Part shown: piece after piece, positions 3,282 through 52,640 of the stretch
Layout: every line of letters begins with the position of its first letter
How positions within the stretch are numbered: position 1 is the first letter of the stretch
Assembly: GCA_963827285.1 (NCBI GenBank)
Contig: CAWHAG010000001.1
Coordinates: forward strand, 274,682-338,681
Direction: 5' to 3'
Source: Ignavibacteriota bacterium
GTDB lineage: Bacteria > Bacteroidota > Ignavibacteria > CAWHAG01
DNA length: 64,000 nucleotides
Notes under the pieces: model-generated
Database searches by the model: none
What the model saw: the letters and a program-made list of their open reading frames with translations, nothing else
Told to the model about the DNA's origin: nothing
Made by a program: the position numbers and the translations under genes

Positions 3282-5165
3282 CTACTTCTCACTGCTTTGT
3301 TGGAAGAACTTCTTTATCCCTCTGTAAATCGCTCCAGCGACTCTTCTCTGAAATGCCCCGTTCATCAGAAGAGCCTCTTGCTTTGGAAGAATGATGAACG
3401 CTGGCTCGACAAGGACAGAAATTGTCTCGTGAATGCGGCACATATACAGATTGTCCCAGTAGAGTCCGAAGTTCGGGAGTTTCAACTCCCTCGTGATTGC
3501 CTCTTGAATATCATAGGCTAAGGGATATGCCTGAGGATGATAGTAGTAAGTGCTGCTGCCGTTCCACACACGTGGGTCAACGCCATCGGGAACAGCATTG
3601 TTGTGAATGCTGATCATAATGTCAGGATGATAACTGACTACCACAGGTCGCCGCTGGCGTAAAGGAAGCGGATCAGTTGTGTGAGTAAGGTACACTTTTG
3701 CACCACTTTGTTCCAACAGCCTCTTGAGATCCAATGAGATTTTAAGATTGACATCCTTCTCCAGTGTCCCCCTTGGTCCAATGGCACCGGGATCAGGAGT
3801 GTGTCCGGGATCAAGGCAGATGGTACGCCCCTTCAGAACATTTCTCCCTGAACCGAGTTTCGGTGGACGCTTGATGTCCAGCAACAGGTTTGTCCCATCG
3901 TATCTCACCGTATAACCCCACTGTTGTTTCCCATTCAGATTGATCACAACCTGCATCATATCATTCTGCAGTTGTGACCACGTGATGTCTCGGATAGTCC
4001 TATCGCCAAAGTCATGGCGGATCCAGTCAAGGTCGGAAACGACACCGTAGAGGGTCAAGACCAGTCGTTGTGGATCAGTTGATTGCCCAATCTTGTAAGG
4101 GAGTCTTTCATGCAGTGCAAACTTCACTTCCACTTTGTCGGCGTACCCTTCTGTTCTAATGATCTCCAAGGTGCTGCGAGGTGGGGGAGTTCCCATAGGA
4201 AGCTCCTTCGTAGCATTCTTTGGAACCCAGATGTCTTCCGTGGGAGCAATTTTGAGTCGTGTCCAGTCGCCCTTTTTCCCGGTAGCAACTGCCTTCACTC
4301 CTCGCGGTATGAAAAGGTTGTAGCCAAGCTCCGCACCGGTGCGGGCGATGGTCATACTGTCTGAGAATTCGACCACACGAAGGATCGTGGAATTGTCAAC
4401 GGAGAGTTTTCCTTTCGCTTCTTTAGAAAGCTCACCAAGTTCTTCATGCTTCAGATGGAAAATAATCTTCGCACCAATGAGAGCGGTATCCGGCAAAAGA
4501 TAATGTCCTCTGTAGATTCCTTGAATAGTATCACCAGTAGCCTTTGCACCGCTGCCGAACACCGCCTCACCCCAATAGTAGTTGTCCACCATGCTGGTCT
4601 CTGTCATCGGAATGTTTCGTATCACTCCCTCGATGTCGAATGAAGCCGCACAGTGTGGCGTTCCTTTGAACTCAACGGTGAAGGCTTCGTGAGGACTGAG
4701 AACCACATTATCATCAGGCTGCATTGAGTAGGTCGTATCAATTAGCAGCGTATCACGGCGAGAGGTTTTGAGCGGCACAGGAGCAAAGGCGTAAACAACG
4801 AGCGTATCCTCCTTCCCATTAAATCGCGCGATGCAGGTGAATCGCACATTTACAGTAACAGTGTCTTGACCGGATATGATTTGTTTTTCTTTGTCAAGAA
4901 AGATTATAGGGGCAAGAGCGAGAAATGCACCATCCATCTCGACCTTTGCCTCTATGCCATTGACACATACTTTTGCCGATGGTGGAGAGACAGTTCCAAT
5001 GGCAAATGTTGGCGCTTTGGAATAGGAGATCCTCTCGCGCTCATTAGGATAGACAACTGTGAGCTTGATACTCTGGGAATTCGGGACTCCGTCGTGAGGT
5101 TCAGCCCGAAGGGTTGCTGACACCAGCAGACAAACAGATGCGAAGAAGAGACTTCTCATGAGCAT
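3282..5165 (-). CDS. N-acetylmuramoyl-L-alanine amidase (Amidase_3 C-terminal domain, large N-terminal extension)
   Basis: 627 aa with signal peptide; C-terminal ICLDPGHTPDPGAIG...ISIHNNA...AFIILPKQEALL matches Amidase_3. Confidence 0.75.
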   Translation of the reverse strand: MLMRSLFFASVCLLVSATLRAEPHDGVPNSQSIKLTVVYPNERERISYSKAPTFAIGTVSPPSAKVCVNGIEAKVEMDGAFLALAPIIFLDKEKQIISGQDTVTVNVRFTCIARFNGKEDTLVVYAFAPVPLKTSRRDTLLIDTTYSMQPDDNVVLSPHEAFTVEFKGTPHCAASFDIEGVIRNIPMTETSMVDNYYWGEAVFGSGAKATGDTIQGIYRGHYLLPDTALIGAKIIFHLKHEELGELSKEAKGKLSVDNSTILRVVEFSDSMTIARTGAELGYNLFIPRGVKAVATGKKGDWTRLKIAPTEDIWVPKNATKELPMGTPPPRSTLEIIRTEGYADKVEVKFALHERLPYKIGQSTDPQRLVLTLYGVVSDLDWIRHDFGDRTIRDITWSQLQNDMMQVVINLNGKQQWGYTVRYDGTNLLLDIKRPPKLGSGRNVLKGRTICLDPGHTPDPGAIGPRGTLEKDVNLKISLDLKRLLEQSGAKVYLTHTTDPLPLRQRRPVVVSYHPDIMISIHNNAVPDGVDPRVWNGSSTYYYHPQAYPLAYDIQEAITRELKLPNFGLYWDNLYMCRIHETISVLVEPAFIILPKQEALLMNGAFQRRVAGAIYRGIKKFFQQSSEK

Positions 5166-8682: not shown

Positions 8683-9129
8683 TTTCGTGTGGAAACTTTG
8701 TATCATTCGTCAGTTGTTCTACTGTTGCGAGGACGAACAAATCGGTTTGCTTTGTTCGTGGATAATGAAACCATGCAGTATGTCGTTTCAAGTGTAAGAA
8801 TTTTTGTTATCTTTGTCAAGTCTTTTCTATGTGCTCGCGTGGAGTGAAGGCTGCTAGTTCATAGCTTCCATCGGGGAACGGAAGGGAAACCTCTTACCAC
8901 TGCGTGAAGGCGCCGGCACAACTATCGTCCTAGCCATCTCTGGATGACCATGATAAGAGAATCCGTTATTTGTGTCCTTTTGACTTGATTATGACGACTA
9001 ATAATGTTAGATTGTAATGTGCAATTATCGCTGACTACGCGCGATGGAGATGTGAGATGTTTTCGGTGCCTTCTACTGAATTAAATCTAGACTGCTAATT
9101 CCTTCTTGCTTGACATCCTTGGTTGCTTC

Positions 9130-10362
9130 ATGAATCAGCGCAAACTCTACCACACGATCGAAAGCATCGCTTCTCAGAAATTTGATACTGATGAAGCATT
9201 ATTGAAACATGTGCTCGAAGAGGTACTCCGAAAGGAGCAGGTGAATGTGAAGGGTGGACGAATATGGAAGTTAAGACCCAACAAACGTTCCTACACTTTG
9301 GTATACCAGACGGGAGATGTAGATCACATACCCGAGGGATTTACTATACGGATTTCCGAGTATCCGATTTTCTTGGAAGTAGGACGGCGCAAATCGGCGT
9401 TGGCTGATGAAACGAATCGGTATCTTCGGAAGAAAGGAATCACAACCTATTCAGCGACAGGGGTCGGTGAGAAGCTCCGATTCCAGAACCAACCGCTGTA
9501 TTCGTATATCATTGCCTTGAACACCGATTCGGTAGATGAGCGCTTTCTCTACACATTGAATATTGTGAGCAACGCCGTCACTTCAGTGATGAAAAGCAGG
9601 AACATAGAGAAGAAGGCGCAGGAGTTAGAAAGGGATTTGGACAAGGCGCGGGAAATCCAGCAGAGCATTCTGCCAGCACATGAATACCACTTTGCGCAGT
9701 ATGAGTTGTTTGGAGCATCACTGGCCGACCGAATCGTTGGCGGAGATTTCTTTGATTATCTGGAAATTGGCGATGATGGCGAACGACTCGGTGTAGCAAT
9801 TGGAGATGCTGTGAGCAAGGGACTCTCAGCGGCAGTAGAAGCGCTATATGTTTCAGGGGCATTGAGGATGGGGGTGGATTACCAGACAAAATTGGGTTTG
9901 CTTGTAAGGAAGGTCAGTAACTTGGTGAACAAGACTTTTCCCGATGATAGATTCGTCACTCTGTTCTTCGTAGAACTCTTAAACACCAAGAACGGTCTCT
10001 GCATTTATGTCAACGCGGGTCATAACAATCCGATGTTGTTCAAGTCAGAGGTTAATAGCGTAGAGCTGCTGGAGGTCACGGGACCTGCCCTTGGACTTTC
10101 CCCAGATCAGAAATACTCAGTGGAAAACATCAACATGAAGCTGGGGGATATCTTACTGTGCTATACCGATGGTATCACGGAAGCGCCTAATGCCAATTTC
10201 GAGCTGTACAGTGAAGCACGACTTGCCCGCAAATTGGCGGAGGCGAAGGACTTGAGTGCAAAGGAAATTACACAATCCATTTTGGAAGAGGTGCAGCTTT
10301 TCAGTGCTGAGGCACCTTATGCGGATGACAAGACCATAGTGACGGTCAAGAGAATCAAGTAG
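9130..10362 (+). CDS. PP2C-type serine phosphatase (SpoIIE/RsbU family) with N-terminal sensory region
   Basis: C-terminal half has GGDFFDY...GDAVSKGLSAA...CYTDGITEA PP2C/SpoIIE motifs; track ORF begins at a TTG (9106), ATG at 9130. Confidence 0.8.
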   Translation: MNQRKLYHTIESIASQKFDTDEALLKHVLEEVLRKEQVNVKGGRIWKLRPNKRSYTLVYQTGDVDHIPEGFTIRISEYPIFLEVGRRKSALADETNRYLRKKGITTYSATGVGEKLRFQNQPLYSYIIALNTDSVDERFLYTLNIVSNAVTSVMKSRNIEKKAQELERDLDKAREIQQSILPAHEYHFAQYELFGASLADRIVGGDFFDYLEIGDDGERLGVAIGDAVSKGLSAAVEALYVSGALRMGVDYQTKLGLLVRKVSNLVNKTFPDDRFVTLFFVELLNTKNGLCIYVNAGHNNPMLFKSEVNSVELLEVTGPALGLSPDQKYSVENINMKLGDILLCYTDGITEAPNANFELYSEARLARKLAEAKDLSAKEITQSILEEVQLFSAEAPYADDKTIVTVKRIK

Positions 10363-10387: not shown

Positions 10388-11986
10388 ATGCTTCAGCGAC
10401 TGCTATACTGTTTCCTTTTCTCCATAGTTCTTTCGGCTGGGACTTCCGCAGAGATTGTGAAAGTAGTGTTCGAAGGTAGTAAGCAGCCTACCCAGTTGGT
10501 CGCTGCGTTTAACGAGCGAGAAGTTCTTTATGGTTCTCTCAAGGATTTGTCTGACGCTCTTTCTCTTCAGGTCTATTACAACAGCACGACGAAGAAACTT
10601 GAGGTGAAGTGTGGGCAATACAGGATCAAAGCATCGGCGAACAACCCATTCATTGTAATTGCAGATAGATCAAACAATTCCACAACGTATCAACTTCCTC
10701 TCAATGTGATTCTCGCTTCGGATGCGATTTTCGTTCCTCTCCAATTCTTCATCCCTCTTTTGAATACGGTGTGTGGTAGCGAGCTCTCTTACAGGGGCAT
10801 GGATAAGGTCATTGCGGTCAAATCGGCGAAGCCGGGAAACAAATCTCCGTGCATGGAAAGGCTATTCGATATTTCGAGTTTGAAAGTGGAGGAGAAGAAG
10901 AATGGTTACTTGATACGCATTACCGCTGCAAGGAGGTTCACTGACTATGAAAGTTTCATCGGTCGCGACGGCTCACTCTATACTACCATAGCAAATGCAA
11001 AGGGAGATGTTGATCGGCTTCAAGCGACGAAACCCGTTGGCATTGTAAGGATGGTGGAGGCTATCCAATCGCCAACCGCGTTGCAACTGAACGTTCGATT
11101 AAACCGCAAAGCTGAAAGCAGTGATATCTTCCAGGATCCTCAAAGCAACGACCTGTTGATTCCAGTGTATCTTCCCATTCGCTCTGAGCGCATTGATAGC
11201 ATCTATCGGTCAGAGCAGCAGAGACTACGTCAGCAGGAGCAGAAGGCGAAGGGACGTAAAGACTGGAAACTTGACCGTATTGTCATTGACCCTGGTCATG
11301 GCGGCAAAAGTGTTGGCACCATTGGTCTATCCGGTGTCTATGAAAAGAAGCTGGCGCTGGCAATCGCACTGAAGCTCGGCAAACTAATTGAGAAGAATCT
11401 GAAGGGCGTTAAGGTTGTCTACACGCGCCAGGATGATAGCTCTGTCGAACTCTATCGAAGAGGTCAAATTGCAAACGAGGCAGGAGGGAAACTCTTTATC
11501 AGCATTCACTGCAACTCCATGCCGAAGAAGCCTTATAAGACAAATGGCTTTGAGATCTATCTGCTTCGCCCTGGAAGAGTAGATGAAGCAATTGCCATTG
11601 CAGAGCGGGAGAATTCAGTCATCAAGTTGGAAGAAGGGTACGCGAAGAGACCAGAATACAAGGAGTTGACAGATGAAAACTTCATTCTTGTTACCATGGC
11701 ACAAAGCGCTTACATGAAGTACAGCGAGCGGTTTGCCCAGTTGGTGTCTGGGGAGATGAGTGGAAAGTCACGGATCGAAAATCGCGGTGTCATGCAAGCA
11801 GGATTCTTTGTGTTGGTTGGGGCTTCGATGCCGTCTGTTCTAATTGAAGCGGGGTATCTCTCCAACAGGCGCGATGAGAAATTCCTGAAGAGCTCATCAG
11901 GCCAACAGGAGATCGCGACAGGGATTTTCAAGGCAGTCAGGAAGTACAAAGTTGAATATGAAAAAGCACTGCAGGAGGGAAAGTAA
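10388..11986 (+). CDS. N-acetylmuramoyl-L-alanine amidase (Amidase_3, AmiC-like) with N-terminal extension
   Basis: IVIDPGHGGKSVG...LFISIHCNS...GFFVLVGASMPSVLIEAGYLSN matches Amidase_3; signal peptide. Confidence 0.85.
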   Translation: MLQRLLYCFLFSIVLSAGTSAEIVKVVFEGSKQPTQLVAAFNEREVLYGSLKDLSDALSLQVYYNSTTKKLEVKCGQYRIKASANNPFIVIADRSNNSTTYQLPLNVILASDAIFVPLQFFIPLLNTVCGSELSYRGMDKVIAVKSAKPGNKSPCMERLFDISSLKVEEKKNGYLIRITAARRFTDYESFIGRDGSLYTTIANAKGDVDRLQATKPVGIVRMVEAIQSPTALQLNVRLNRKAESSDIFQDPQSNDLLIPVYLPIRSERIDSIYRSEQQRLRQQEQKAKGRKDWKLDRIVIDPGHGGKSVGTIGLSGVYEKKLALAIALKLGKLIEKNLKGVKVVYTRQDDSSVELYRRGQIANEAGGKLFISIHCNSMPKKPYKTNGFEIYLLRPGRVDEAIAIAERENSVIKLEEGYAKRPEYKELTDENFILVTMAQSAYMKYSERFAQLVSGEMSGKSRIENRGVMQAGFFVLVGASMPSVLIEAGYLSNRRDEKFLKSSSGQQEIATGIFKAVRKYKVEYEKALQEGK

Positions 11987-12097: not shown

Positions 12098-13507
12098 TCA
12101 AAACCTATAAGACAGTGTGAACAAGAAATTATCCGTTGTCACCTTCTCATCAGTGCGTGAAGATTGATCATCGTACTGGACACGGTATGTGCTGAATGAC
12201 CCGCGGGCGTACGCGCCGTCAATCATCAATGTCTCGCTCACTAAGAACCCAATTCCCACAGTCCAATACTTATGCTGTCGGTCTGAGATGCCTTTATCTT
12301 CAGCGTAAGGTGATGGACGATATCCGTAACCAGCACGTAACTGCACGTTAATATCAGGAATGGTGTATTCACCACCTATTCTCAGGCTTGTCACCGCTTG
12401 AAGAAACTGTTTAATGTCGGTATTCAATGCAGCAACGTCAGAGTTAGCATCATCAAATCGAAGTTGCGTGTAATCAGTGTAATCCACATCGCCAGACACG
12501 GTGAATCCGGCGTAACTCACTGATACGCCTCCTCCAAACACCCATGGTGTCACCACATCGTATTTGTCGGTGCCGGGGAGTTTGTAGTAATAGGTGTCCC
12601 CGTTGTCGAAATAGCTGTTGCCGTCAGTGGAGTAATCTTCCCGGATAGTGTAGATTGAGGGCGTTTTGATTGTCGCGCCGAATCGTAGAACGTCCTTCCA
12701 CCGATACAATAGCCCAAACTTTCCCCCCACCCCGCTGATGTCCCCAGTAATGATGTTGTGCAGCGTCAAGCTTCTGAAATCCCAGGGGAGTGTATTATAG
12801 ACATTCTTCGTGTCCTCCTCGATGAAATTTCTATCATAGGTGTAGGTTCCCGATAATATGTTGAGTGTTAATCCAACGGATAAATCTTGCGCAATATCAA
12901 GTGCACCTGCAAAGGACCAGTTGTTTAATCCTCCTCCTTCGAGCACAGTCCCTCGCTGATTGACATTTCTTTGAATAGGAGTATTTCCAAGGCTATCATT
13001 CAAATAAAGTTGATATGCTATGTCTTGATCGTAATTCTTGTTATAGAGTGTTGGGATAATGGAGCTATTCGGGTTGAAGTTGTTAAACGAAAGTGTGGTT
13101 GTAAAGTCATTTACTCGGTTGTAGCCAACTGCAAATGTCAGACTACCTCGAATCGTCGGGAATGGGTACACAAAGCCAATGTTGTTCAAGCCGGTTGAGC
13201 TGTTGGATGAACTGCTTGACGCGTTCAAGAACGTGCCGTTGTTCTGATATGACAGCGTCGAGAGCCCACCCATCAGTTCCATTCGTTTGACTTGTGCTAA
13301 TCCCGCCGGGTTCCAGAATGTTGCGCTGTAATCGTCAGCGACGCCCGTGTAAGCTCCGCCCATTCCTAGAGAACGAGCACCAATACCGAGTCCAGGTACC
13401 GCCAACCGCAAGGCATCCTCGATAAATTGTGCTTCTGAAGTCTGTACCGCAAACAACAATATACAAAGCGTGATCGCTGTCCATCCGATATTCATTTTGA
13501 TTTTCAT
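12098..13507 (-). CDS. outer-membrane beta-barrel protein, FadL/TodX/PorV-like
   Basis: Signal peptide; N-terminal LAVPGLGIGARSLGMGGAYTGVADDYSATFWNPAGLA resembles the FadL-family N-terminus; C-terminal LSYRF aromatic barrel end. Confidence 0.7.
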   Translation of the reverse strand: MKIKMNIGWTAITLCILLFAVQTSEAQFIEDALRLAVPGLGIGARSLGMGGAYTGVADDYSATFWNPAGLAQVKRMELMGGLSTLSYQNNGTFLNASSSSSNSSTGLNNIGFVYPFPTIRGSLTFAVGYNRVNDFTTTLSFNNFNPNSSIIPTLYNKNYDQDIAYQLYLNDSLGNTPIQRNVNQRGTVLEGGGLNNWSFAGALDIAQDLSVGLTLNILSGTYTYDRNFIEEDTKNVYNTLPWDFRSLTLHNIITGDISGVGGKFGLLYRWKDVLRFGATIKTPSIYTIREDYSTDGNSYFDNGDTYYYKLPGTDKYDVVTPWVFGGGVSVSYAGFTVSGDVDYTDYTQLRFDDANSDVAALNTDIKQFLQAVTSLRIGGEYTIPDINVQLRAGYGYRPSPYAEDKGISDRQHKYWTVGIGFLVSETLMIDGAYARGSFSTYRVQYDDQSSRTDEKVTTDNFLFTLSYRF

Positions 13508-13576
13508 GGTTGTCACCTATCAAGTTTATGAAGTGAAGAATCGTCGTGAATTAGGCTGTAGCATTCTCTCCATAAA

Positions 13577-14275
13577 CTATTTTCCTCTTGTTGAACCGCT
13601 TGTTCTCTTGCCTCCGCTATCGCTCTTGCCATCGTCTGAACTCTCGTCTCTTTGAGCATCGTTAGAACGTATATCTGTTGTGTTACTGTTGTCCCTTGAA
13701 TTACTGGTCGAGTCCTGCCGTACTGACCCCCGGGCGTCTTTCTGCGGCGATGAACCCGCTGTGTTTTCACTGCTGGTTGATGCACCAGCGGCGGAAGGAA
13801 CGCTTCTTGCCGGCGGAGGAATGTTGATTGTGTTAGGACTACTTCCTCTTTGACTGCCGATATTCCGCCTGCTATCATCATACTGGCTGTCAACTGAAGT
13901 CTTCCCACTTCCGCCACCGGATTGAACCGCTCCCCCCCGCGTATAATCATACCACCACGGATAATGATAGTAATTCCACCGCCGACCATGGGTTGTAATG
14001 GCTCGATTTTGCTCACCATTGATGGTGCCGTCGTCTCCGCGGCTGAGATTGCCAAACAAAGCTACATCGTGGTCGTAGGTGTTGTCGCTGTATCGCTCCG
14101 TGTGACAGCTTGAGCACTCATCTCGGTAGCCAATCGTCGCTCGGTAACCATTCTCGCTATCATCTTTCATTGCTACTTCTGGATGCTTAAGCACAGTGTA
14201 GCAACCAGAGATGCCAAGAGCGAACAGGACAACAAGTCCGAGATATTCTTTCCTTCTAATAAGTCTCATCTTCAT
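13577..14275 (-). CDS. low-complexity lipoprotein (lipobox ISGC; Tyr/Trp-rich core; Ser/Thr/Gly/Arg/Asp-rich tail)
   Basis: MKMRLIRRKEYLGLVVLFALGISGCYT...; WNYYHYPWWYDYTRGG; long disordered S/G/R/D tail. Confidence 0.6.
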   Translation of the reverse strand: MKMRLIRRKEYLGLVVLFALGISGCYTVLKHPEVAMKDDSENGYRATIGYRDECSSCHTERYSDNTYDHDVALFGNLSRGDDGTINGEQNRAITTHGRRWNYYHYPWWYDYTRGGAVQSGGGSGKTSVDSQYDDSRRNIGSQRGSSPNTINIPPPARSVPSAAGASTSSENTAGSSPQKDARGSVRQDSTSNSRDNSNTTDIRSNDAQRDESSDDGKSDSGGKRTSGSTRGK

Positions 14276-14845
14276 TTGCCTCTGTGAGCTTTTTCTACCG
14301 GCTATCGTCCTCTGGTGCTTCCTCCTCCTCGGCTGCCCCCACTGCTTCCGCCCCCGCCACTTCCACCCCGACTTCCTCCACCGCTTCCTCCTCTGGTACC
14401 TCCACTGCTACTTGGTGGGGGAGAGTAACTTGGTGAGGATGATTAAGCCGGAGGAGTATAACTCGATGGCGTAGCTCCTGATTTCGGAGAACTTGACGAT
14501 TGTGACGAAGGATGCGAATTGGTGCGTGTCCTGCTCCTTCCGCTCTCTGTCCTGGGACGAATGCTGGGCACCGGCACGGGTTTCAGTTCATTGGGGACAA
14601 CGTATTTGCTTTTGCCTTTAGGATTATCATCTCTTGTGCTTCCGCCTCTCGATTTACTATCTCTCGAACTTCCGCCTCGTGTATTGCCTTGACCTCGTGT
14701 CCCGCTTCCACCCTGGTTGCCTTCAACTCGTGTTCCTCCTCCAGCACGGTCAGCGCCGACGGTCGGATTCCGGTCTGTTCCAGTGCGAGTTCTGTCTGTA
14801 CCCGCTGCACCGCGGGTCGTGCTTTCCTTCGTTGTGCTTTCGGTT

Positions 14846-15415
14846 CTAGTTCCCGTAGCCGATGGTGGATTGAAGGAAGAAACCTGCTCCACCGGTAGAT
14901 ACGCCCCGCGTTGAACCAGCGCCACGAGTTGAACCAAAGTCTCTCGTCCTTGAGCGATCCTTGTTATAACCGTAGTAAGTGCCGTAGTAGTAGGGATTAT
15001 AGTCGCCGTAGTAACCCCCGTAGTAGTAATTCCCGTAAGGGTAATACCACCCAGGACTGTAGCCGCCGTAGTACCACCATGGATGCCAATACCAATCGGG
15101 GTACCAGTACGAACTCGACCAATAGTAATTGCCCCCGTACCAATCATCGTAAGATGGGTCGAACCAATAGGAGGACGGATAATAGAACCGGAAGTAGAAC
15201 CTATGACGAGGGTAGCCATAGAAGTAATAGTTGTTGACAACATTGCCGCGCGCCGTATCCGTAGAGGCGTAGGTGCTATCTTGGTCATAGTATTCATTGG
15301 AGTAACTCTCGTCTGACCTCATAGTGGCGACTTGTGTGTAGCAGCCTGAGATCAGCAGACCCATCCCCAGAAGTCCGATCAGTAGAGTTAGTGTTGCTTT
15401 CGCCTTTCTGTTCAT
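14846..15415 (-). CDS. paralogous Tyr/Trp/Gly-rich lipoprotein (lipobox ISGC); apparent frameshift, tail probably continues to 14443
   Basis: MNRKAKATLTLLIGLLGMGLLISGCYT...; extreme aromatic stretch (YYWSSSYWYPDWYWHPWWYYGGY...). The S/T/R/G-rich tail continues in another frame (ORF 14443-15297, C-terminal part), mirroring the tail of the 13577-14275 paralog. Confidence 0.6.
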   Translation of the reverse strand: MNRKAKATLTLLIGLLGMGLLISGCYTQVATMRSDESYSNEYYDQDSTYASTDTARGNVVNNYYFYGYPRHRFYFRFYYPSSYWFDPSYDDWYGGNYYWSSSYWYPDWYWHPWWYYGGYSPGWYYPYGNYYYGGYYGDYNPYYYGTYYGYNKDRSRTRDFGSTRGAGSTRGVSTGGAGFFLQSTIGYGN

Positions 15416-15824: not shown

Positions 15825-16725
15825 CTAACGGTGTTCTCGTTCCGATAGTGCACTTGCTTTTAGGTAATCCCGAAAATTCCTGTGTCCATCAACCACCTCA
15901 TTGTGTTGAAGGTTGGTGTAGAGGAAAACAAGCCGATGCTTTCGCAGATCCTCTGGTGTCACATCTGCTTCTTTTCTCGCAAGATGCGGAATGCCCCAAC
16001 TCTCCAAATCAGAGATCAATGCTTCGGTCTCGTCCTTTGTCCCGCCATCCTTTGTGTAAATGCTGATAAGTTTGCCGTTGTGATGATCAAGCCAGTACAC
16101 GTACTTTTCCGTTTGTCCGTAAAGTGCGTCGAACAGAAACACCTCTTTGATATGATCAGTTAATCCACCACGCATGAGGATAAAGGAAATAACGTGATAG
16201 CCCCCACTATGACCCGAGAGGATGATGTCCCCTATTTGCCTGCTTGTCGTTTTCTTCTGCTGAAAGAGCCACTCGATAATATCACTCATAAACCTCTCGA
16301 ATCCTTCTGGATCTTCCAGTTTGCCACCGAACGAATCGGGAGAGTTGCGAGGTCCCTGAGGGAACGATCAAGATGGCGTTTTTCTCACTCTCACTGAACT
16401 GCTCGATGAGCTGAAAACGACGCAACACACTGTCAACATTGTTCCACCAACCATGGAAGTGAACGGCGAAGTCAACTCTTTCTGTCTGCCTATACCCTTT
16501 CGGAATGAACATTGCTACGCTGCTGTCGTTGTAGTGTTTATCGGCCGGATAGATCACGTTGTCATATTTGTGTCCTTCAGCTCGTTTTGGATGAGGAAAT
16601 GGTGCGGAAGAAAGCTGCGTAATGATTAGCTCACCGAACTGGGTATATCGTTGATCTGGATTTTGGGCCTGCAGAGCGACTGCTGTTGAAAGCATTGGAG
16701 CGAGTAGTAGTGAAAGTTTATTCAT
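15825..16725 (-). pseudogene. alpha/beta-hydrolase (esterase-like, GHSGG nucleophile elbow) split by a frameshift near 16355-16368
   Basis: ORF 16282-16725 (signal peptide...AVHFHGWWNN...NAILIVP) and ORF 15825-16289 (MSDIIEWL...IGDIILSGHSGGYHV...) are adjacent. The frame of the second reads back as ...QGPRNSPDSFGGKLEDPEGFERF-MSDIIEWL, joining the first after ILIVP. Confidence 0.65.
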
Positions 16726-17037: not shown

Positions 17038-20000
17038 CTATTCCGTAATGTCCAGGCTCACCTCGTTAGCATTTCCTCTTACCTCTGGATAATACATCAG
17101 CGAGGCAAGCGATGGCATCACGTGGTAGTTTCCAGGAATCTGTGCACGAACGATGTAAGTAAAGGCATGTTCACCTGAATAGAAATATCGTGCAAAGAAC
17201 GCGACTTTCTCATCTCGCACGTCTCGCTCTTCCCACCACCATCGCCATCCATAATACTCGCCGCCGCTGTAGCCATCCTCATCTGCAATCTTGTATCCAT
17301 CTGTTTTCCGAATCACCTCGCAGCCTGAGGGCAGTGGATCTTCGAGCATGAAATATTCATAGTTGTCGTCAGAGTAAATGTGCAACTTTACGAAGATCTC
17401 GTCTCCTGACTTCACGGTCCCAGTGAAGGGCTGTTTCACATAGACGATCTCCTCACTCCTTCTCTGCTTCACAAGTTTGAAATACTCCCTTGTTACTTTG
17501 AATCCGGCACTCTTCGGCTGGATGTTTTCATCTGCTGAGTAATACATCACCCGGGAGGTGAAGTAAAGTTTCCCGTCGCCGTATTTTTCCACCCGAATCC
17601 GGTTTTCACCCTGCCTGAGCGAACGCCCGTTCACCTTCACGCGCGCCTCTTTAGAGAACACATCATCCTGTGTGACTTTCTTCTCCATGACCATCTGGTC
17701 ATTCACATACACTTTCGTTAGATAGTTCGGCTGAAGCTCCTTGCTGTTCTTCAAATAGTCCGCCAAGGCAAAGATGATGATTGCTGTCTGTCGCGTCGAG
17801 TTCCATGAGAACCCGTGCCGCTGACTCAATAGCCAGTGCACGCCCTTCCTGATGAGGTCGCTGTTGCCCTTCATTTCAATCAATGCCTTGAGTGCAAAGG
17901 CGGTGGTTTCAACAGCGTCGTCCTGCCAGTTGTAGTGCCAACTCTTGCCTGTCCAGTAAATCGCCGTTCCGGTGCTGGTAGTGCCGGCCTCCAGTTGATT
18001 AACAAGTGTCATCGCCGTCGCCTTGTCGCCTTGATGGTAACTTGCTAATGCCAGGAGCGACCGTGCATAGTTGTTAATACCCCTCGTATCGAACCGTGCC
18101 AACTGACCATCAATGATGGACTTCTCCAAAACCTTCTCTTGCTCATTGGCGAACGTCATCACGTAGATCACATACGCATGTGTCGTGGGGTCAAGTTTCA
18201 CTGTGCTCTCCAGGTGTCCCTTCAAGTTCCAGATCCCTTTCGAAATCACATTTTCAGGAATCTCGTAGTTGGCGCGCTTTGCAAGTGAGAGACCATAGAC
18301 GACGTATGCTGTCATAAACGGGTCAGACTGATCGTTTTCCCACCAGCCCCATCCTCCGTCTTCATGCTGGAAGTTGTAAAGTCGCTTCAAGCCTTTCTCC
18401 ACCATCTTCGGGATCTCTTTTTTCACATCCTCCGCTAATGGCACATTCAAGTCGCGCATCGTGTTTGCCACGATGACTGTTGGCAGGAATCTGCTCATTG
18501 TCTGCTCAACGCAGCCATAAGGATAACCTATCAAATCGTCAAGTGCACCAAGTATGCTCGAGGCAAGCGATGGAGAGATACTGACGTAGAACTGTGCGCT
18601 GCTCAAATCCACAGCTTGCGGGATATTCACGGTTGCTGTCTTGACCTCCCGATTTGCATCAATATCAATCACCTGCGCCTCCGCGATCTGCAATCCATGA
18701 GGCAACACCGGTACTTTCACTTCCATCGCATCGGATTCCTCGTTGGTGAGTGCCTTGGCTAACAGCTTGGCTTCACCAGGGCTGGAGGTTCTCACCTTCC
18801 AATCAATCTTCACCTCACCATTTCTTGGAACAGTTATGATCTTCTCAGTCCCCTCAACGTTAAGATTGGTTGCCGACAAACTGACTTTCGTTTGTTTGTC
18901 TTCGCTGAGGTAATTGTGCACGATGGTCGCAATCAGCAGTTCATCTTTCTGCATGAAGAATCTCGGCGTCTCCATCCGAACTATCAAGTTCTTGCGTGCA
19001 ATGACTCTGCTGATTTCACTGCCAACTTCCGTTTCTCTGGTCATGGCGCGAACGGTTGCTCGCCAGGTCGTCAAGTTGTCTGGATACTTCACTTGTACTT
19101 TGGCAATGCCGTTCCCATCCGTCACAAGTGTTGGCTGCCACAGCATCATATCCTTGAACTCTCGACGAGTCGCCGGTTCCATGAAGAGTTGCCCCTTGAC
19201 ATCACCAAGAGCGATGCGCTCTCGCTCCGATCTTGTTGCCATCAGTGGAGCTGCTTCACCCGCCTTCTTGTTGTCAGAGTATTCTTCTTTCCTCAGACCT
19301 CGAGAATAGCCGTAGAAGTTGAAGAACAGCGATGATGATGTCTGGACGGAGTTGTATCGTATGTTGTAGAAGAACTTTTTGATGTCCGTCGTTCTCTCGG
19401 GCGAGATCGCATACACGCTTTCGTCCACCACACCGACGGAGACTTCCGCATTGCGTACCGATCTACCGTTTTCGTCAGTGACCTTCACCGTCAACTCACC
19501 TTGATCCTGCGGCTTGTAGGTCTGCTTGTCATTCAGAATTTCGACGTTGAGAAACTTCTCCTGCGGGATAATGAGCACTCGCTTGCTCTGATTGTAAAAG
19601 TTGTCATTGAAGAGAGTCGAAACAGAGAGGTATATATTTGGACGATAGTTATCTTTCAATTTCACATCAATCACTTTAGAAACCCCATCAAATCGTTCGA
19701 CGTTCTGATCAAGAATGTCCTCACCTTCAACGGTCACCAGTGCGTCAATTCCAGAAGTCGGCAGCACGATCAGAGCATGCATTGTCTCGCCGGCAGTGTA
19801 ACTGTCTTTGTCGGGAATTATTTGAATCTTTGCGGATTCCTCCCCCCAGTACGCGTAGTAACGCTCGTCTGTGACATAAAGATAGCTGGTCTCATCAATG
19901 TAGTTGTTGCGCGAATCCCTTGCACTGACGACCAAGCGATAGTAGCCGTTCTCCTGTACTGAGAAGTTCACTGTGCCGCTGCCATCACGATTCGTCGCGC

Positions 20001-21840
20001 TGCTTAGAGTCATCACTTCCTGCTCGTGATGCTGATAGTTGTATCGCTTTACATTGTTATCCCAGTATTCTGTTCTATCCCACCACTGTCGGATGACCTT
20101 GACAGCGAAGTTTGCCATCACACCATTTTCCTTGAAATCTGCGATTCGTACCTTGAGTCGAACATCTTCCTTCGGCTTATAGACGTATTTATCCGTCTGC
20201 GAGGAAATATAGAACAGCCCTCGTGTCACCTCCACGCTCTTGGCACCTGAGATCGCCCTTCGGCTGTTATCTATGACATTCGCTTGAATGCGATAGACGT
20301 AGTCTTCTCTTGCCTTGACATCGGTATAGTAGGTGAGTTCGAACCTTCCGTTGTTGTCAACTTTCCCCGTGCCGCTATCGAGCAGTTCCTGACGATAGGT
20401 GTAATACTCTTCATCTTCTTCGTAATACCACGCATAATCTGTTCCCTTCCACCACGGACGCCAGTAGCGACTGCGATAGATATAATACTCAACGTCGGCG
20501 TTCGTCACAGGGCTACCAAAGTAATAGTCCGCCTTGACGGTCGCCTTGATAACATCACCTTTCGCGTAATGATCCTTGTCGAATGCAACTTCAACTTTGT
20601 ATTCTGGCTTCTTATATTCCTGGACTTCGAAGTTGTTAGTGTAAGTCCTATTCTCGACAACGGTTTGGATGTTGTAGAAACCCAGTGGTGGTTCCTCGGC
20701 AAGTCTCAGACTCCCATGGAAACTTCCAAACTCGTTTGTCTTCATTGAGTCTTTGTAGACGACACTGCCTCTCGAATCGGTGACGGTAATCTTCACAAGT
20801 TGATTTGGGAAATTCACCAACTGTCCTTCATCGTCTTTCTTTCTTACAATACCTTTGAAGAAGACATCCTGTCCTGGACGATACACGGGACGCTCGGTAT
20901 AGACGTACACATAATACCCCTGTTCTCTATCATAGGAGTAGTAATAAGGATCGGAGATGACAAGGTTTCCATCCTTGATACCCATTATCAGAATATTGCC
21001 GCCGCCGTATTCCCAGTCGAACTCTTCACCTTCCTCTTCAGTCGGAGTTGCTTGCTCTTTCTTTTCTATCGTTAGTGTATAGAGTCCTTTCTTGTCAGTT
21101 GTTCCTTTCCCAATCTTCTTATTCTTTTCATAGAAGGACAGTTCAAAGTCAGAAATCGGCTCACCGGTCTTCTTGTCCACGACATACGCAACCAATTTGG
21201 TTCCAGACCGTTTTGTGACCATCCCACACTTTGAGATCACCAGCATGGTGTAGGCAACTTTGTCAAGAGCTCTGCCCTCGACGAGATAGACACCAGCCTC
21301 TTTGATGTCTGCTCGCACCGTCTGGTAGTTCCACCATTCCTTTGTTTTGATAATCTGCTCCGTCCACTCCTTCACGATCTTGTAGCCCTCGAGTTCTTTG
21401 GGAACTTTCTGTTGCTCTTCAGCTGCCTTCTTTTCCTCCGCTTTTTCTATTCCTGCCATATCGCGGATGTTCACCCGGCTTTCGGCTTTCATGTAGGCGC
21501 GGGCAATCTGCCGAGCATCTCGCTGGATTTTGTTAGCAGCTTCACCGAAGATTTTGAAGATACTCGTCTCGTTGAGGCTTCTGAGATCTGGATGGTGCGG
21601 ATTCCTTTGCTTTTGGAAGAATTTGACAGGGTCGTCAATCTGATACACCCGAAGCTTAATGGTTCCTGAAAGATTATATGTCTCGAGTTGGAACGTGACC
21701 TCATCGCCGGGTGAGAACACTTTCGAGGTTGATAGGTAGAAGCTGTAATCTTTGTCCGCCACTCTCATGGCTGAAAGGAACAGGAGAGCAAACAGCGCAA
21801 GTGGCAGAACAACTCCTCTACGACTGATGATCTGTTTCAT
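17038..21840 (-). CDS. alpha-2-macroglobulin family protein (bacterial A2M, thioester-containing)
   Basis: 1600 aa, signal peptide; thioester motif YPYGCVEQT (CxEQ); size and architecture typical of bacterial A2M. Confidence 0.85.
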   Translation of the reverse strand: MKQIISRRGVVLPLALFALLFLSAMRVADKDYSFYLSTSKVFSPGDEVTFQLETYNLSGTIKLRVYQIDDPVKFFQKQRNPHHPDLRSLNETSIFKIFGEAANKIQRDARQIARAYMKAESRVNIRDMAGIEKAEEKKAAEEQQKVPKELEGYKIVKEWTEQIIKTKEWWNYQTVRADIKEAGVYLVEGRALDKVAYTMLVISKCGMVTKRSGTKLVAYVVDKKTGEPISDFELSFYEKNKKIGKGTTDKKGLYTLTIEKKEQATPTEEEGEEFDWEYGGGNILIMGIKDGNLVISDPYYYSYDREQGYYVYVYTERPVYRPGQDVFFKGIVRKKDDEGQLVNFPNQLVKITVTDSRGSVVYKDSMKTNEFGSFHGSLRLAEEPPLGFYNIQTVVENRTYTNNFEVQEYKKPEYKVEVAFDKDHYAKGDVIKATVKADYYFGSPVTNADVEYYIYRSRYWRPWWKGTDYAWYYEEDEEYYTYRQELLDSGTGKVDNNGRFELTYYTDVKAREDYVYRIQANVIDNSRRAISGAKSVEVTRGLFYISSQTDKYVYKPKEDVRLKVRIADFKENGVMANFAVKVIRQWWDRTEYWDNNVKRYNYQHHEQEVMTLSSATNRDGSGTVNFSVQENGYYRLVVSARDSRNNYIDETSYLYVTDERYYAYWGEESAKIQIIPDKDSYTAGETMHALIVLPTSGIDALVTVEGEDILDQNVERFDGVSKVIDVKLKDNYRPNIYLSVSTLFNDNFYNQSKRVLIIPQEKFLNVEILNDKQTYKPQDQGELTVKVTDENGRSVRNAEVSVGVVDESVYAISPERTTDIKKFFYNIRYNSVQTSSSLFFNFYGYSRGLRKEEYSDNKKAGEAAPLMATRSERERIALGDVKGQLFMEPATRREFKDMMLWQPTLVTDGNGIAKVQVKYPDNLTTWRATVRAMTRETEVGSEISRVIARKNLIVRMETPRFFMQKDELLIATIVHNYLSEDKQTKVSLSATNLNVEGTEKIITVPRNGEVKIDWKVRTSSPGEAKLLAKALTNEESDAMEVKVPVLPHGLQIAEAQVIDIDANREVKTATVNIPQAVDLSSAQFYVSISPSLASSILGALDDLIGYPYGCVEQTMSRFLPTVIVANTMRDLNVPLAEDVKKEIPKMVEKGLKRLYNFQHEDGGWGWWENDQSDPFMTAYVVYGLSLAKRANYEIPENVISKGIWNLKGHLESTVKLDPTTHAYVIYVMTFANEQEKVLEKSIIDGQLARFDTRGINNYARSLLALASYHQGDKATAMTLVNQLEAGTTSTGTAIYWTGKSWHYNWQDDAVETTAFALKALIEMKGNSDLIRKGVHWLLSQRHGFSWNSTRQTAIIIFALADYLKNSKELQPNYLTKVYVNDQMVMEKKVTQDDVFSKEARVKVNGRSLRQGENRIRVEKYGDGKLYFTSRVMYYSADENIQPKSAGFKVTREYFKLVKQRRSEEIVYVKQPFTGTVKSGDEIFVKLHIYSDDNYEYFMLEDPLPSGCEVIRKTDGYKIADEDGYSGGEYYGWRWWWEERDVRDEKVAFFARYFYSGEHAFTYIVRAQIPGNYHVMPSLASLMYYPEVRGNANEVSLDITE

Positions 21841-22222
21841 AAAGCACCTTGGCTTTAGTAGAGTTCATGGCAGTTTCTGTTTTTATACTGGATTTGCAGT
21901 GCGACTTCTAAATCGCTGCTTTAGAAGCGAGATAAATCTTGCGCTACGATCTATCGAAACTTGCTCAACAGAGTAGTGGTTTCTGTCTTGTACACTTGTT
22001 ATATGTCCGTTAAGAAGGTTATGTTCCTAAAGGGGAAGCGAAAAGGCAAGGCACAGTTAGCCAAGGACCTACTATGGGCTGAAGCGTTGTAGGACGAGCT
22101 TCAGCTCGTCGTGCGACATGAATGTCGCGCTTCATCCTTTTCCGCAAAAGGTGTTAATGTCTGAGTTATCCCGGCTTGTCAGGCTTGGGAACTCGCAATG
22201 ACAGGTTCTTTTCCGGTCACCC

Positions 22223-23110
22223 TTATCCCTCAACAAAACAGACGCTATTCCACAATGTATTCTCTCCATCTTTATAGACCGCATACTGGAAGTCCTTTCT
22301 CACACTTGCCGCACCAATTTCCCCTTTCTTGCTTAGAGCGATAACGCCGACCTGAAAATCACGGGTGCCGTTCATCTTGAGCATTCTCTTAATCGCTAGC
22401 TCACACGCTTGTTGCGGAGTCATTCCTTCTCTCATCTTCTCTACGACGAGAAAACTGCTGCATGCTCGTATCACTTGCTCTCCGTTACCTGTTGCTGCGG
22501 CGGCACCAACTTCGTTATCAACATATAGCCCTGCACCGATGATGGGCGAGTCTCCAACACGCCCTCGCTTCTTGAACGCAAGTCCGCTTGTCGTGCAGGC
22601 ACCGGAGAGATTTCCGTCGCTGTCGAGGGCGAGCAGACCAATTGTATCGTGGTCTTCCTCATTTGGCATAGGTGGACGCCAGTTCGCTTTATCGCTAAGG
22701 GCGTTCCAGTCCAACCACCTATTGCGCGCATGTTCCGTCAGCAAGTCTGTTTTCTCGAAGCCGTGAGCCAGTGCAAATTCTAGTGCGCCCTCACCGGCAA
22801 GCATCACGTGTTTGGTCTCCTCCATCACAAGTCGGGCAACAGAAATCGGATTCTTGATATGTTCAAGAAACGCAACGGCACCAGCATTGCCACGCCAGTC
22901 CATAATCGCGGCGTCAAGCGTCACCTGACCGGTTTCATCGGGCATACCGCCGTAACCGACACTCGTCACTGTGGCATCATCCTCTGCGACACGCACCCCC
23001 TGTTCCACCGCGTCAAGTGCACTGCCGCCACTGATGAGCACCTTCCACGCCGCTTCATTTGCCGCAAGACCATGCTTCCAGGTTGATATAACAGTAGGCT
23101 TGTTTTCCAT
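22223..23110 (-). CDS. isoaspartyl peptidase / L-asparaginase (Ntn-hydrolase, plant-type asparaginase family)
   Basis: HDTIGLLALDSDGNLSGACTTSGLAFKKRGRVGDSPIIGAGLYVDNEVGAAAATGNGE matches the asparaginase_2 family. Confidence 0.8.
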   Translation of the reverse strand: MENKPTVISTWKHGLAANEAAWKVLISGGSALDAVEQGVRVAEDDATVTSVGYGGMPDETGQVTLDAAIMDWRGNAGAVAFLEHIKNPISVARLVMEETKHVMLAGEGALEFALAHGFEKTDLLTEHARNRWLDWNALSDKANWRPPMPNEEDHDTIGLLALDSDGNLSGACTTSGLAFKKRGRVGDSPIIGAGLYVDNEVGAAAATGNGEQVIRACSSFLVVEKMREGMTPQQACELAIKRMLKMNGTRDFQVGVIALSKKGEIGAASVRKDFQYAVYKDGENTLWNSVCFVEG

Positions 23111-23113
23111 TCT

Positions 23114-25069
23114 CTATTTGCTGATGATCATTTTGTTTGTTTCAGTGAAACCCTTTGCCGACAGACGATAGAAGTACACACCGCTGGATAGAATGTCGAA
23201 TGTTCCCGCAAAGCGGGATCGAATATCGAATGTCACACGGTAGTTTCCAGGATTTTTTTCTTCATTTACCAAGGTTGCCACTTCTCTTCCAAGCACATCG
23301 AAGACTTTCAGCGTCACGTGTTCGCGCTGTGGAAGTGAGAAACGAATCGTGGTGGCAGGATTGAAGGGATTCGGATAATTTCGTTCAAGCCGATAGCCTT
23401 GCGGCGCCATGGGCAGAGATTCTTTCACGCTTGTGATGGCCGTCGTTGACAGCAAAACCCGAGATGGACAACTCGCATCGTGATAAATACAATTCGTCGC
23501 GACAAGCGTATCGCCTGGTTTGTAAAGAACACCGCCATTATTCAGGTTGATATCAAAACGTGGGTAGTCCGATGAACTCACATCAATCCGCAACTGGTGT
23601 CCCTTCAGAAACGTCATTGCAAGATTTTGCAGTTCAGTCGTCACAGGATATATTTGCCCGGGTGTCATTAAATCTTCCACACTGTACGAATTGCGGAAGC
23701 GCATTCGTCTGATACCAGCCGTCAGAATCATGGAGCGTCCGTCGGGGTACACATCGCACAAACGTACACCGAAGTCTGTATCTTTTCTGTTGGATGACAC
23801 ATAGAGTCGAACTTCTGTTGCTCCGTCCACCATCAAATCATTTTGGAGAACCGGAGTGGTGTACGTGAGAACATCGCTGCGGCTTTCAACACGCTGTCGC
23901 TGGTCGAGCGGTCCACCCTGAACCGACGGGTCAAACGGATTAAATCTCACACCGCCGTAAGAGGGTGTAGGATCGCGCGGATTGTACCTCAACGAATCAG
24001 GTGTGGCACTCTGTGGTGGTGCAGCTCGTGATAACAAGCCGCCCGATTGCAGATACAACGTATCCGTTGCACCGCCGAGCGAATACCAATCGCTTGTTGA
24101 GCGCCATTCATCTGTTCCCATCTGGTAGTAGCGTATAGTCGGGTTTTGGTCGTACCCGCTCTGCATGTTCCGCAGATAGTAATCAAAGAAACGCATTGCT
24201 GCGGTATCAGAGATCCCAACGGCGTTCGGATACTCTAACTCTCCTTGCTTCGATTTTCCTATTTCTGAATGCATCCAGGGACCGATAATGAATTTGTGCT
24301 TCGAGCGAACTGATGGTGCACTTCTCGCTTTAAGATCATGAAAAGCACGAATCACATCATCAGGATAATGGTCGTACCATCCACCAATCAGAAGCATGGG
24401 TACGGCAATCGAATCGGGATAATCCGAACTTGTCTCGAGGAGCCTCCACATCGGATTATATGATGGGTTTGCTAATATGAACTCCGTCGGGAGAAACCCG
24501 AGTCTTTCCATCGTCTCATTGTGTTCCTTCAGGTAATCGCCACCATAATAAAAATTCGAGTACGCAATTTTATAATCTTTCACCAGCGGCATACTGCAGA
24601 CAAGATGCGGCGGATGGTGTTTGGCTGTCTGAAACTGAATGAGACCCAGAGCGGACGGTCCCCACGTACCGACTTTGCCATTGCACCACCGCCGATATGC
24701 TATCCATTCAACGGCATCGTAGCCATCCAAGCCTCTATCGTAGCCGGATACATCCGCATCCTTCGAGCCGTAGAATCCACGCCAATCAACAACTACGCAA
24801 TTGTAATGCACACTGTCGTAAGGAAACGATGAGCCGCCTGCTTCCGGCAGACCAACTCTGATGCGATAATAATTTTTGTTGTATGGTGTCTGGACGAGGA
24901 TGACGGGCTTTGCTGCAGTGGTGTCAAGGGAATATAGATCAGCCGCAAGAACTTTTCCATCACGGGTCGGAATCGTGATGGGAATGTAACGCGCTGTATC
25001 TTGAGCGAACATCCTGGAACCGAGCGTTGTTATAAGACAGACGATCAGATAATAAACTGTGATTTTCAT
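23114..25069 (-). CDS. CocE/NonD-family hydrolase (S15 Xaa-Pro dipeptidyl-peptidase-like) with T9SS C-terminal sorting domain
   Basis: 651 aa, signal peptide; YNCVVVDWRGFYGSKD region; C-terminal ERNYPNPFNPATTIRFSLP...VFDVLGREVATLV...GVYFYRL...KMIISK is a T9SS CTD. Confidence 0.7.
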   Translation of the reverse strand: MKITVYYLIVCLITTLGSRMFAQDTARYIPITIPTRDGKVLAADLYSLDTTAAKPVILVQTPYNKNYYRIRVGLPEAGGSSFPYDSVHYNCVVVDWRGFYGSKDADVSGYDRGLDGYDAVEWIAYRRWCNGKVGTWGPSALGLIQFQTAKHHPPHLVCSMPLVKDYKIAYSNFYYGGDYLKEHNETMERLGFLPTEFILANPSYNPMWRLLETSSDYPDSIAVPMLLIGGWYDHYPDDVIRAFHDLKARSAPSVRSKHKFIIGPWMHSEIGKSKQGELEYPNAVGISDTAAMRFFDYYLRNMQSGYDQNPTIRYYQMGTDEWRSTSDWYSLGGATDTLYLQSGGLLSRAAPPQSATPDSLRYNPRDPTPSYGGVRFNPFDPSVQGGPLDQRQRVESRSDVLTYTTPVLQNDLMVDGATEVRLYVSSNRKDTDFGVRLCDVYPDGRSMILTAGIRRMRFRNSYSVEDLMTPGQIYPVTTELQNLAMTFLKGHQLRIDVSSSDYPRFDINLNNGGVLYKPGDTLVATNCIYHDASCPSRVLLSTTAITSVKESLPMAPQGYRLERNYPNPFNPATTIRFSLPQREHVTLKVFDVLGREVATLVNEEKNPGNYRVTFDIRSRFAGTFDILSSGVYFYRLSAKGFTETNKMIISK

Positions 25070-50779: not shown

Positions 50780-50930
50780 GAACTCCCATCTTAGATGGGG
50801 ACTTTCTCGTGAGTTCTTTGAAACATAGTGTGCATACCAAGTCAATTTAGCAGAGTTTCACACCTCGTCCTTCCGCCGCAAGTGGAAGGACAAGATTGAA
50901 CTCGAAGTTGTCTTTGAAAGAATACAACGG

Positions 50931-52466
<1,536 letters not shown>

Positions 52467-52566
52467 AGTTCTCTCTCGACGGTGTCGAGGGTAAACATCC
52501 TTTCCTGCTAAATCTGATTTTACTATGCACACTATTTTATTGAAGTCAGCTTGGCTACACTCACAA

Positions 52567-52640
<74 letters not shown>

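Follow-up and report, generated by a model that had tools for sequence, protein, structure and literature searches.

A conserved gene module pairing tyrosine- and tryptophan-rich lipoproteins with a FadL-family outer-membrane barrel in Ignavibacteria-type bacteria

Gene content and organization of the locus

The locus described here lies in a stretch of 64,000 nucleotides from an Ignavibacteriota bacterium (assembly GCA_963827285.1, contig CAWHAG010000001.1, positions 274,682 to 338,681), referred to hereafter as the window. Three head-to-tail genes on its minus strand, read directly from the window sequence, encode two lipoproteins, designated LP1 and LP2, and an outer-membrane β-barrel. The genes are closely spaced, with about 27 nt separating LP1 from LP2 and about 60 nt separating LP2 from the barrel gene; a 410-nt intergenic region lies 5′ of LP1, and a convergent Amidase_3 gene ends the gene cluster downstream of the barrel. 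A scan for sigma-70 promoters and terminators gave a result no better than shuffled sequences. The combination of lipoprotein(s) and barrel is a real, widespread and previously undescribed outer-membrane module of Ignavibacteria-type bacteria. Its genes in the window are as follows.

14302..15415, minus strand: LP1 in its full reading, a lipoprotein of about 370 aa, based on relatives with an intact open reading frame (ORF)
14846..15415, minus strand: uninterrupted LP1 ORF as encoded, 189 aa, by direct reading
13577..14275, minus strand: LP2, a lipoprotein of 232 aa and shorter paralogue of LP1, based on direct reading and shared motifs
12098..13516, minus strand: FadL-family 14-stranded outer-membrane barrel, 472 aa from the GTG at 13516 (the database call is 469 aa from the ATG at 13507)

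A preliminary description of the window, made from the sequence alone, had reported two minus-strand genes with a lipobox (ISG followed by CYT) just upstream of a FadL-like barrel gene on the same strand, and this arrangement was confirmed by direct reading and by the match of the barrel to the Pfam family Toluene_X.

Conservation and linkage across genomes

Word-indexed searches recovered few homologs of LP1 and LP2, and hundreds of barrel homologs at 45–55% identity in metagenome-assembled genomes (MAGs) labelled Bacteroidota, Ignavibacteria or Kryptonia. A scan based on the barrel alignment, using one genome per GTDB species, yielded at least 583 relatives, from which the best 80 loci were kept. 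An LP1 gene was present directly upstream of the barrel gene and on the same strand in 71 of the 71 GTDB-species loci that had at least 1.5 kb of upstream sequence. The reciprocal scan of metagenomes with LP1 peptide patterns identified 32 loci, 16 of which had at least 1.5 kb of downstream sequence, and the barrel gene followed LP1 in all 16. This linkage was kept down to 35–40% barrel identity. The other neighbors, encoding a YjbH-like protein of 268 aa, an amidohydrolase, CysRS, a penicillin amidase and SIR2, were each found in 32–55 of 81 loci (55, 43 and 42 for the three commonest). In the window itself the flanks are rearranged and the trio is intact. An exhaustive phmmer search against 1.84 billion representatives detected 133 LP1 proteins at E ≤ 1e-3, all with the same architecture, and the diversity of LP1 amounts to at least 133 clusters at 50% identity. 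The gene linkage and the conservation pattern are thus direct observations. The co-occurrence of lipoproteins and barrel, which the preliminary description had proposed to check, is therefore strict in both directions; its two counter-scenarios, in which homologs would never be syntenic with the barrel or the aromatic-rich ORFs would lack conserved homologs and be frame artefacts, do not apply, as homologs are numerous and dN/dS (the ratio of nonsynonymous to synonymous substitution rates) in LP1 is 0.11–0.17.

An LP2-type gene was located between LP1 and the barrel gene in about one quarter of the species-level loci and also in an AT-rich clade. LP1 is universal in the module and LP2 is optional.

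Sequence features of the lipoproteins

The following features were identified in LP1.

15341..15343, minus strand: lipobox Cys25, followed by Tyr26 and Thr27, by direct reading; C-Y-T is invariant
14960..15235, minus strand: aromatic core, residues 61–152, with 33 Tyr and 9 Trp in 92 aa (46%), by composition count
14924..14944, minus strand: RxxGxxR (R158-D-F-G-S-T-R164), immediately behind the aromatic core, with G161 and R164 invariant and R158 almost invariant
14302..14923, minus strand: basic disordered tail rich in S/T/G/R/P, with SYSPP motifs and a C-terminal GGSTRGR, in two frames here

Starting from position 15415, the N-terminus of LP1 reads MNRKAKATLTLLIGLLGMGLLISG followed by CYTQ, that is, a signal peptide with a lipobox ending in GLLISG before C25. 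Both LP1 and LP2 were classed as lipoproteins by direct reading, their signal peptides ending in the pattern [LVI][ASTVI][GAS]C. Position −1 of the lipobox is Gly in 70 of 72 LP1s and in 18 of 18 LP2s. The Cys-Tyr-Thr that follows cleavage, usually with Gln as the next residue, is invariant among 41 aligned LP1s and in all complete members of the BLAST-defined cluster; it was also present in 131 of the 132 LP1 representatives found independently by phmmer. As it holds in both of the latter sets, the invariance is not an artefact of the search pattern.

The lipidated Cys is followed by an acidic stretch of 35 residues and then by the aromatic core. Tyr and Trp make up 46% of the core, compared with a mean of 5.4% in the other 29 long ORFs of the window (binomial P about 1e-28), so that the unusual composition noted in the preliminary description stands out against the rest of the window. 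Across the LP1 family the core has a median length of 84 aa and 34.5% Tyr plus Trp, with motifs including NNYYF, YYYPSYYW and DPW. RxxGxxR was found in 71 of 72 LP1s, with 2.4 copies per protein compared with 0.46 in shuffled sequences. The tail of LP1, once the reading frame is repaired, is 218 aa long with a net charge of +21 and 54% Ser/Thr/Gly; the family median is 163 aa, with 82% S/T/G/R/P/A/N, 14% Arg, SYSPP-like motifs and a basic C-terminus. In the LP1 family, the 60 residues after the Cys (window about 15160..15340) contain the Bacteroidota sequon for O-glycosylation, D-[ST]-[AILVMT], about three times as often as expected (45 of 72 against 15 expected and 79 of 117 against 25 expected). 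LP1 may be O-glycosylated, like BamG and BamH, which are introduced below.

Features of LP2 are listed below.

14201..14203, minus strand: lipobox Cys25, FALGISG followed by CYTV, by direct reading
14102..14116, minus strand: CSSCH (CxxCH), C54-S-S-C-H58, a possible haem c attachment site, in 17 of 25 aligned LP2s
13952..13960, minus strand: PWW, invariant among LP2s
13847..13867 and 13586..13606, minus strand: two copies of RxxGxxR, the second at the extreme C-terminus

The preliminary description had characterized both genes as extremely aromatic. This is correct for LP1 and does not extend to LP2, which has only a short aromatic cluster, WNYYHYPWWYDY, and reaches 9 Tyr plus Trp in its best 40 aa compared with 23 for LP1. 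A disordered polar tail, also ascribed to both proteins, is present in LP2 (120 aa, ending KRTSGSTRGK) and in LP1 of the relatives, while the LP1 tail in the window is out of frame and contains a TAA codon. The pairwise similarity of LP1 and LP2 is weak (BLASTP E = 0.003), and the paralogy claimed for them is upheld because they share their architecture and the motifs GCYT, PWW and RxxGxxR together with a basic C-terminus. Neither LP1 nor LP2 matched any family in Pfam, NCBIfam or PDB profile searches, in agreement with the earlier view that the lipoproteins belong to no described family. The lipoprotein family is new in composition, and the module represents a new variation on the theme of a FadL-like barrel with a lipoprotein.

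The CxxCH motif was found in the LP2 orthologs of loci L007, L015, L016, L021, L024, L026 and others, and a conserved His follows it 20–35 residues downstream. Matches of LP2 to cytochrome c models and chains were all sub-threshold (E 0.005–2). The motif together with the downstream His suggests that these LP2s could be lipid-anchored mini-cytochromes c. As L010 and the AT-rich clade lack CxxCH, this motif is not core to the system.

Integrity of the LP1 gene

Two changes interrupt LP1 in the window: a +1 insertion of T in GGTTTC at 14882, which puts the S/T/G/R-rich tail into another frame, and a change of CAA to TAA at 14445..14443. Intact LP1 genes were found in relatives, encoding 377 aa in L003 and L004 (95% identical DNA) and 358 aa in L001 and L002 (about 70% identical DNA). 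The independent assembly L005, 99.98% identical over 4.2 kb, differs from the window by a single base, which restores CAA at 14445. Over 11.8 kb the only single-base indels in coding sequence between the window and L003 are one in LP1 and one in a gene encoding a 299-aa protein. Since the coding indels are confined to these two genes and L005 lacks the TAA, the breaks could be either a local assembly error or a recent inactivation. A programmed frameshift at GGTTTC was ruled out, as no relative has the extra T. A frame artefact was likewise ruled out by the intact orthologs and by dN/dS, which between L003 and L001 was 0.11 for the LP1 core and 0.17 for the tail. Judged by these substitution rates, both LP1 regions are under purifying selection, the predicted disordered tail included. 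Frameshifted LP1 or LP2 genes also occur in other public assemblies (L044, 3449..4444; L006, 2627..3388, P0005), so that such low-complexity genes tend either to be misassembled or to vary genuinely in length and frame.

Barrel fold and family

The mature N-terminus and the hatch region of the barrel contain two conserved segments.

13406..13429, minus strand: mature N-terminus QFIEDALR (Q30–R37); Q30, D34, A35, L36 and R37 are invariant
13301..13315, minus strand: hatch NPA motif, W68-N-P-A-G72, invariant in 31 barrels and aligned with N33-P34-A35 of FadL

A Pfam search assigned the barrel to Toluene_X (FadL, PF03349) with 67.1 bits against a cut-off of 29.7, the match covering profile positions 22–418 of 421. 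The AlphaFold2 (AF2) model (predicted local distance difference test, pLDDT, 88; predicted template modelling score, pTM, 0.80) has 14 strands and an N-terminal hatch. DSSP analysis of the model indicated that strand 3 is interrupted at residues 138–139, the site of the FadL kink, and that the last β-strand reaches residue 471 of 472, the sequence ending in SYRF. Few parts of the barrel are as well conserved as its N-terminal tail, Q-F-x-E/D-D-A-L-R (regional conservation 0.74–0.76). It makes the N-terminus 10 residues longer than that of Escherichia coli FadL, the GxGxAY sequence beginning at mature residue 21 rather than 11.

A Foldseek search with the barrel model gave BamG of B. thetaiotaomicron as the best hit (9hiv_F, 4.8e-19), with FadL, TodX and other BamGs close behind and PorV far behind (3e-7). 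The NCBIfam BamG model (NF053685) matched 27 of 31 family members (best E 1.9e-26), the strongest single match among curated models. The family profile retrieved TbuX and FadL from the PDB by sequence; a search of the PDB with the N-terminal 100 aa returned nothing useful. The PorV_fam model (NF033709) matched the N-terminal hatch region in 31 of 31 barrels (best E 6.9e-17), in every case below the curated cut-off (47.6 bits against 90). A faint match to the NCBIfam model FilD, a putative pilus-system FadL-like protein, was seen in 6 of 31 barrels. BamG and FadL/TodX are equally close to the barrel, and PorV is more distant. An identity with PorV was ruled out by the Foldseek rank and the sub-cut-off NCBIfam score; of the FadL/PorV-like assignment in the preliminary description, the FadL part is retained and the PorV part is not.

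A possible docking function and its relation to BamG and BamH

In the β-barrel assembly machinery (BAM) complex of Bacteroidota, BamG is a FadL-like barrel that anchors the lipoprotein BamH (Liu et al., 2025, PMC12611786; Silale et al., 2025, PMC12578637). What sets BamG apart from transport FadLs is its N-terminal extension, which is conserved, about 10 residues long and in contact with the conserved N-terminus of BamH (PMC12578637). The extension fills the lateral opening of the barrel, and BamH is wedged, by a lipidated N-terminus that is itself highly conserved, against the extended N-terminus of BamG (PMC12578637, PMC12611786). The bamG and bamH genes are neighbors in Chitinophaga, Salinibacter, Fibrobacter, Gemmatimonas, Caldithrix and Ignavibacterium album (IALB_1455/1454) (PMC12611786, Supplementary Table 1). 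A literature search on IALB_1454/1455 and on tyrosine-rich lipoproteins found nothing relevant.

The barrel described here resembles BamG in being a 14-stranded member of the FadL family with a highly conserved N-terminus that extends about 10 residues beyond that of FadL, and LP1 and LP2 resemble BamH in having a highly conserved lipidated N-terminus and a gene that adjoins the barrel gene. On the basis of the strict linkage, the matching conserved N-termini, the fold and family matches to BamG, the adjacency of bamG and bamH, and the breadth and housekeeping-like setting of the module, which adjoins RecN and CysRS, we tentatively favor a reading in which the barrel is a docking platform that holds the N-termini of the lipoproteins as BamG does for BamH, at a probability somewhat short of even. 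The three genes would encode one outer-membrane unit, in which the barrel would serve as a membrane-embedded docking platform and not as a secretion pore, holding LP1, and LP2 in the loci that have it, by their invariant lipidated N-terminus, Cys-Tyr-Thr. From this anchor each lipoprotein would extend an acidic stretch, the Tyr/Trp cluster and the long Arg-rich disordered tail with RxxGxxR. We infer by analogy the physical binding of barrel and lipoproteins, the membrane face that the lipoproteins occupy and the final function of the unit.

Several results weigh against this docking model. The window barrel scores 51.4 bits with the BamG model against an equivalog cut-off of 250, and no member among the 31 comes near that cut-off, the best E value of 1.9e-26 being far weaker. 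The barrel family profile did not retrieve the three solved BamG chains from the PDB, even at E ≤ 10. Unlike BamG, the barrel is 70–80 aa longer, lacks the C-terminal extension that contacts BamD and keeps the NPA hatch motif of transport-competent FadLs. Unlike BamH, LP1 and LP2 have no folded scaffold domain and carry instead a Tyr/Trp cluster and a basic disordered tail; they resemble no PDB chain, and a PDB search with the LP1 family profile did not recover BamH even at E ≤ 10. The AF2 model of LP1 (pLDDT 37) has no fold, a result that says little because the alignment behind it consisted of two sequences. The surface-export signal described for BamH-K comprises at least two acidic residues in the six positions after the Cys (PMC12578637). 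LP1 has none in 57 of 72 proteins and one in the other 15, and LP2 has none or one, so that by sequence both lack the Bacteroidota surface-export signal. A search for co-variation between the LP1 positions after the Cys and the barrel N-terminus revealed no pattern beyond phylogeny.

It is possible, though we lean against it, that the pair of lipoprotein and barrel is the Ignavibacteria-type version of BamG and BamH; the alternative within the docking model is a paralogous BamG2/BamH2-like unit with another envelope role. FadL-like barrels of FCB (Fibrobacteres–Chlorobi–Bacteroidetes) bacteria have only recently been shown to be docking platforms, namely BamG in BAM and PorV and PorQ in type IX secretion. 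Like this barrel, PorV and PorQ are FadL-like and come from the same superphylum, and they anchor surface proteins (PorU, PorZ and cargo); unlike them, the barrel scores below the cut-off and no genes for components of the type IX secretion system (T9SS) are conserved at the locus. The module would be a third type of pairing, widespread and with an unannotated lipoprotein of extraordinary composition as the partner. If it is the Ignavibacteria-type BamG/BamH, a disordered aromatic-rich lipoprotein could supply an essential part of outer-membrane protein (OMP) assembly in place of a folded scaffold, which would change the view of how the extracellular 'canopy' works. If it is a separate unit, it would add to the envelope a new component that is conserved across a large clade with few cultured members. 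In both cases the module offers three testable sequence signatures, namely Cys-Tyr-Thr, RxxGxxR and the barrel N-terminus QFxEDALR.

In composition only, LP1 may resemble FUS-family proteins with prion-like and RGG domains and high-glycine-tyrosine proteins, in which a Tyr-dense segment precedes a disordered segment rich in Arg, Gly and Ser. LP1 differs from them in its bacterial origin, its lipid anchor and its conserved, non-repetitive motifs, and it has no homology to them in sequence. One might imagine, although we consider it improbable, LP1 as a new kind of envelope protein, a lipid-anchored disordered 'sticker' with a Tyr-Arg grammar like that of FUS-type phase-separating proteins, which a dedicated BamG-like barrel nucleates at the outer membrane into a dynamic aromatic/cationic layer, which would either replace the folded BamH canopy as a disordered chaperone over the OMP insertion site or form an adhesive coat, with LP2 adding a mini-cytochrome c in a subclade.

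Alternative explanations

A different function would be that of a FadL-type uptake channel for hydrophobic or aromatic compounds with LP1 and LP2 as accessory lipoproteins, the aromatic cluster capturing substrate and handing it over near the lateral opening. The full-length Toluene_X match, the invariant NPA hatch motif, the break in strand 3 at residues 138–139 of the AF2 model at the site of the FadL kink, and a family profile that finds TbuX and FadL and not BamG are all consistent with uptake. We nevertheless regard it as unlikely, since the distribution of the module is universal and housekeeping-like, beside RecN and CysRS, unlike that of a catabolic uptake locus, with no degradation genes conserved nearby, and the long Arg-rich disordered tail would have no obvious role. 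Unlike this barrel, FadL, TodX and TbuX (PF03349) are known to work alone, without a conserved N-terminal extension or a dedicated operonic lipoprotein, and no characterized FadL/TodX transporter is known to need a partner lipoprotein. Moreover, the conserved 10-residue extension, reported to lie in the lateral opening of BamG, would block the transport path (PMC12578637, PMC12611786).

The preliminary description had instead suggested a module for export or assembly of a surface polymer, adhesin or dityrosine cross-linked matrix. In such a scheme the barrel would export or assemble LP1 and LP2 on the surface, and their Tyr- and Arg-rich sequences would form an adhesive or dityrosine cross-linked matrix. 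The extreme Tyr/Trp content and the basic tail would suit this role, the PSYSPP and SYTPP motifs may be likened to mussel adhesive decapeptides, and there is the faint FilD match in 6 of 31 barrels. Against this, FadL-family barrels are hatch-plugged and none is known to serve as a conduit for polypeptides or polymers; the conserved neighborhood includes no enzyme for cross-linking, such as a peroxidase or laccase, LP1 and LP2 lack the Bacteroidota surface-export signal, and their architecture is not that of amyloid- or pilin-like repeats, the core motifs being conserved and non-repetitive. No tested result points to surface-polymer export or a dityrosine matrix, which we consider quite unlikely. 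LP1 and LP2 could also face the periplasm as an envelope tether or spacer anchored in the inner leaflet of the outer membrane, the basic tail (net charge +21 in LP1) binding peptidoglycan or anionic lipids and the barrel being a mere neighbor in the membrane; the missing surface-export signal, the charge of the tail and the Amidase_3 cell-wall genes that flank the locus in the window are in line with this. As the amidase neighbor is not conserved in other lineages, Pfam searches found no known peptidoglycan-binding domain, and a tether would explain neither the strict pairing with the barrel nor the invariant CYT N-terminus, this is very unlikely. Finally, the adjacency might merely be inherited gene order without a functional link, the low-complexity lipoproteins being fast-evolving filler. 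All loci do come from one broad clade of Ignavibacteria/Kryptonia-type MAGs, in which the housekeeping neighbors are also partly conserved. We hold this to be highly improbable because it is contradicted by the strict two-way linkage (71/71 and 16/16, against 50–70% for other neighbors), which persists to 35–40% barrel identity and through the rearrangement in the window, and both lipoprotein regions are under purifying selection.

Neighboring genes and other features of the window

In the window RecN and CysRS are kept near the trio, and genes encoding an M14 peptidase, an asparaginase, an α2-macroglobulin and the 299-aa protein have been inserted. The region 17038..25069 on the minus strand, between CysRS and the trio, encodes a bacterial α2-macroglobulin of 1600 aa, the asparaginase and a 651-aa protein whose L001 ortholog belongs to the M14 peptidases and carries a T9SS C-terminal sorting domain. 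At this position most other lineages carry an amidohydrolase gene and a YjbH-like gene. The latter encodes a secreted protein of about 268 aa with a weak match to Pfam YjbH (E 0.0018). In 55 of 81 loci (for example L008, 2770..3669, and L018, 2821..3657) this gene has the orientation of LP1 and lies 50–240 nt upstream of it; it is absent from the window and from L001. The gene for the 299-aa protein (15825..16725, minus strand) encodes a secreted protein without a Pfam family and is split by an extra C at 16362 into ORFs of 147 and 154 aa; L003 and L006 have an unbroken copy, and the more distant L001 lacks the gene.

Within 9 kb the window contains two genes for Amidase_3 proteins (N-acetylmuramoyl-L-alanine amidases), at 3282..5165 (minus strand) and 10388..11986 (plus strand); one of the two encodes an AMIN domain as well, and a gene for a SpoIIE-type phosphatase is located at 9106..10362, just upstream of the second. 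A complete rRNA operon comprising 16S, tRNA-Ile, tRNA-Ala, 23S and 5S genes was identified at 50924..56466 on the plus strand.

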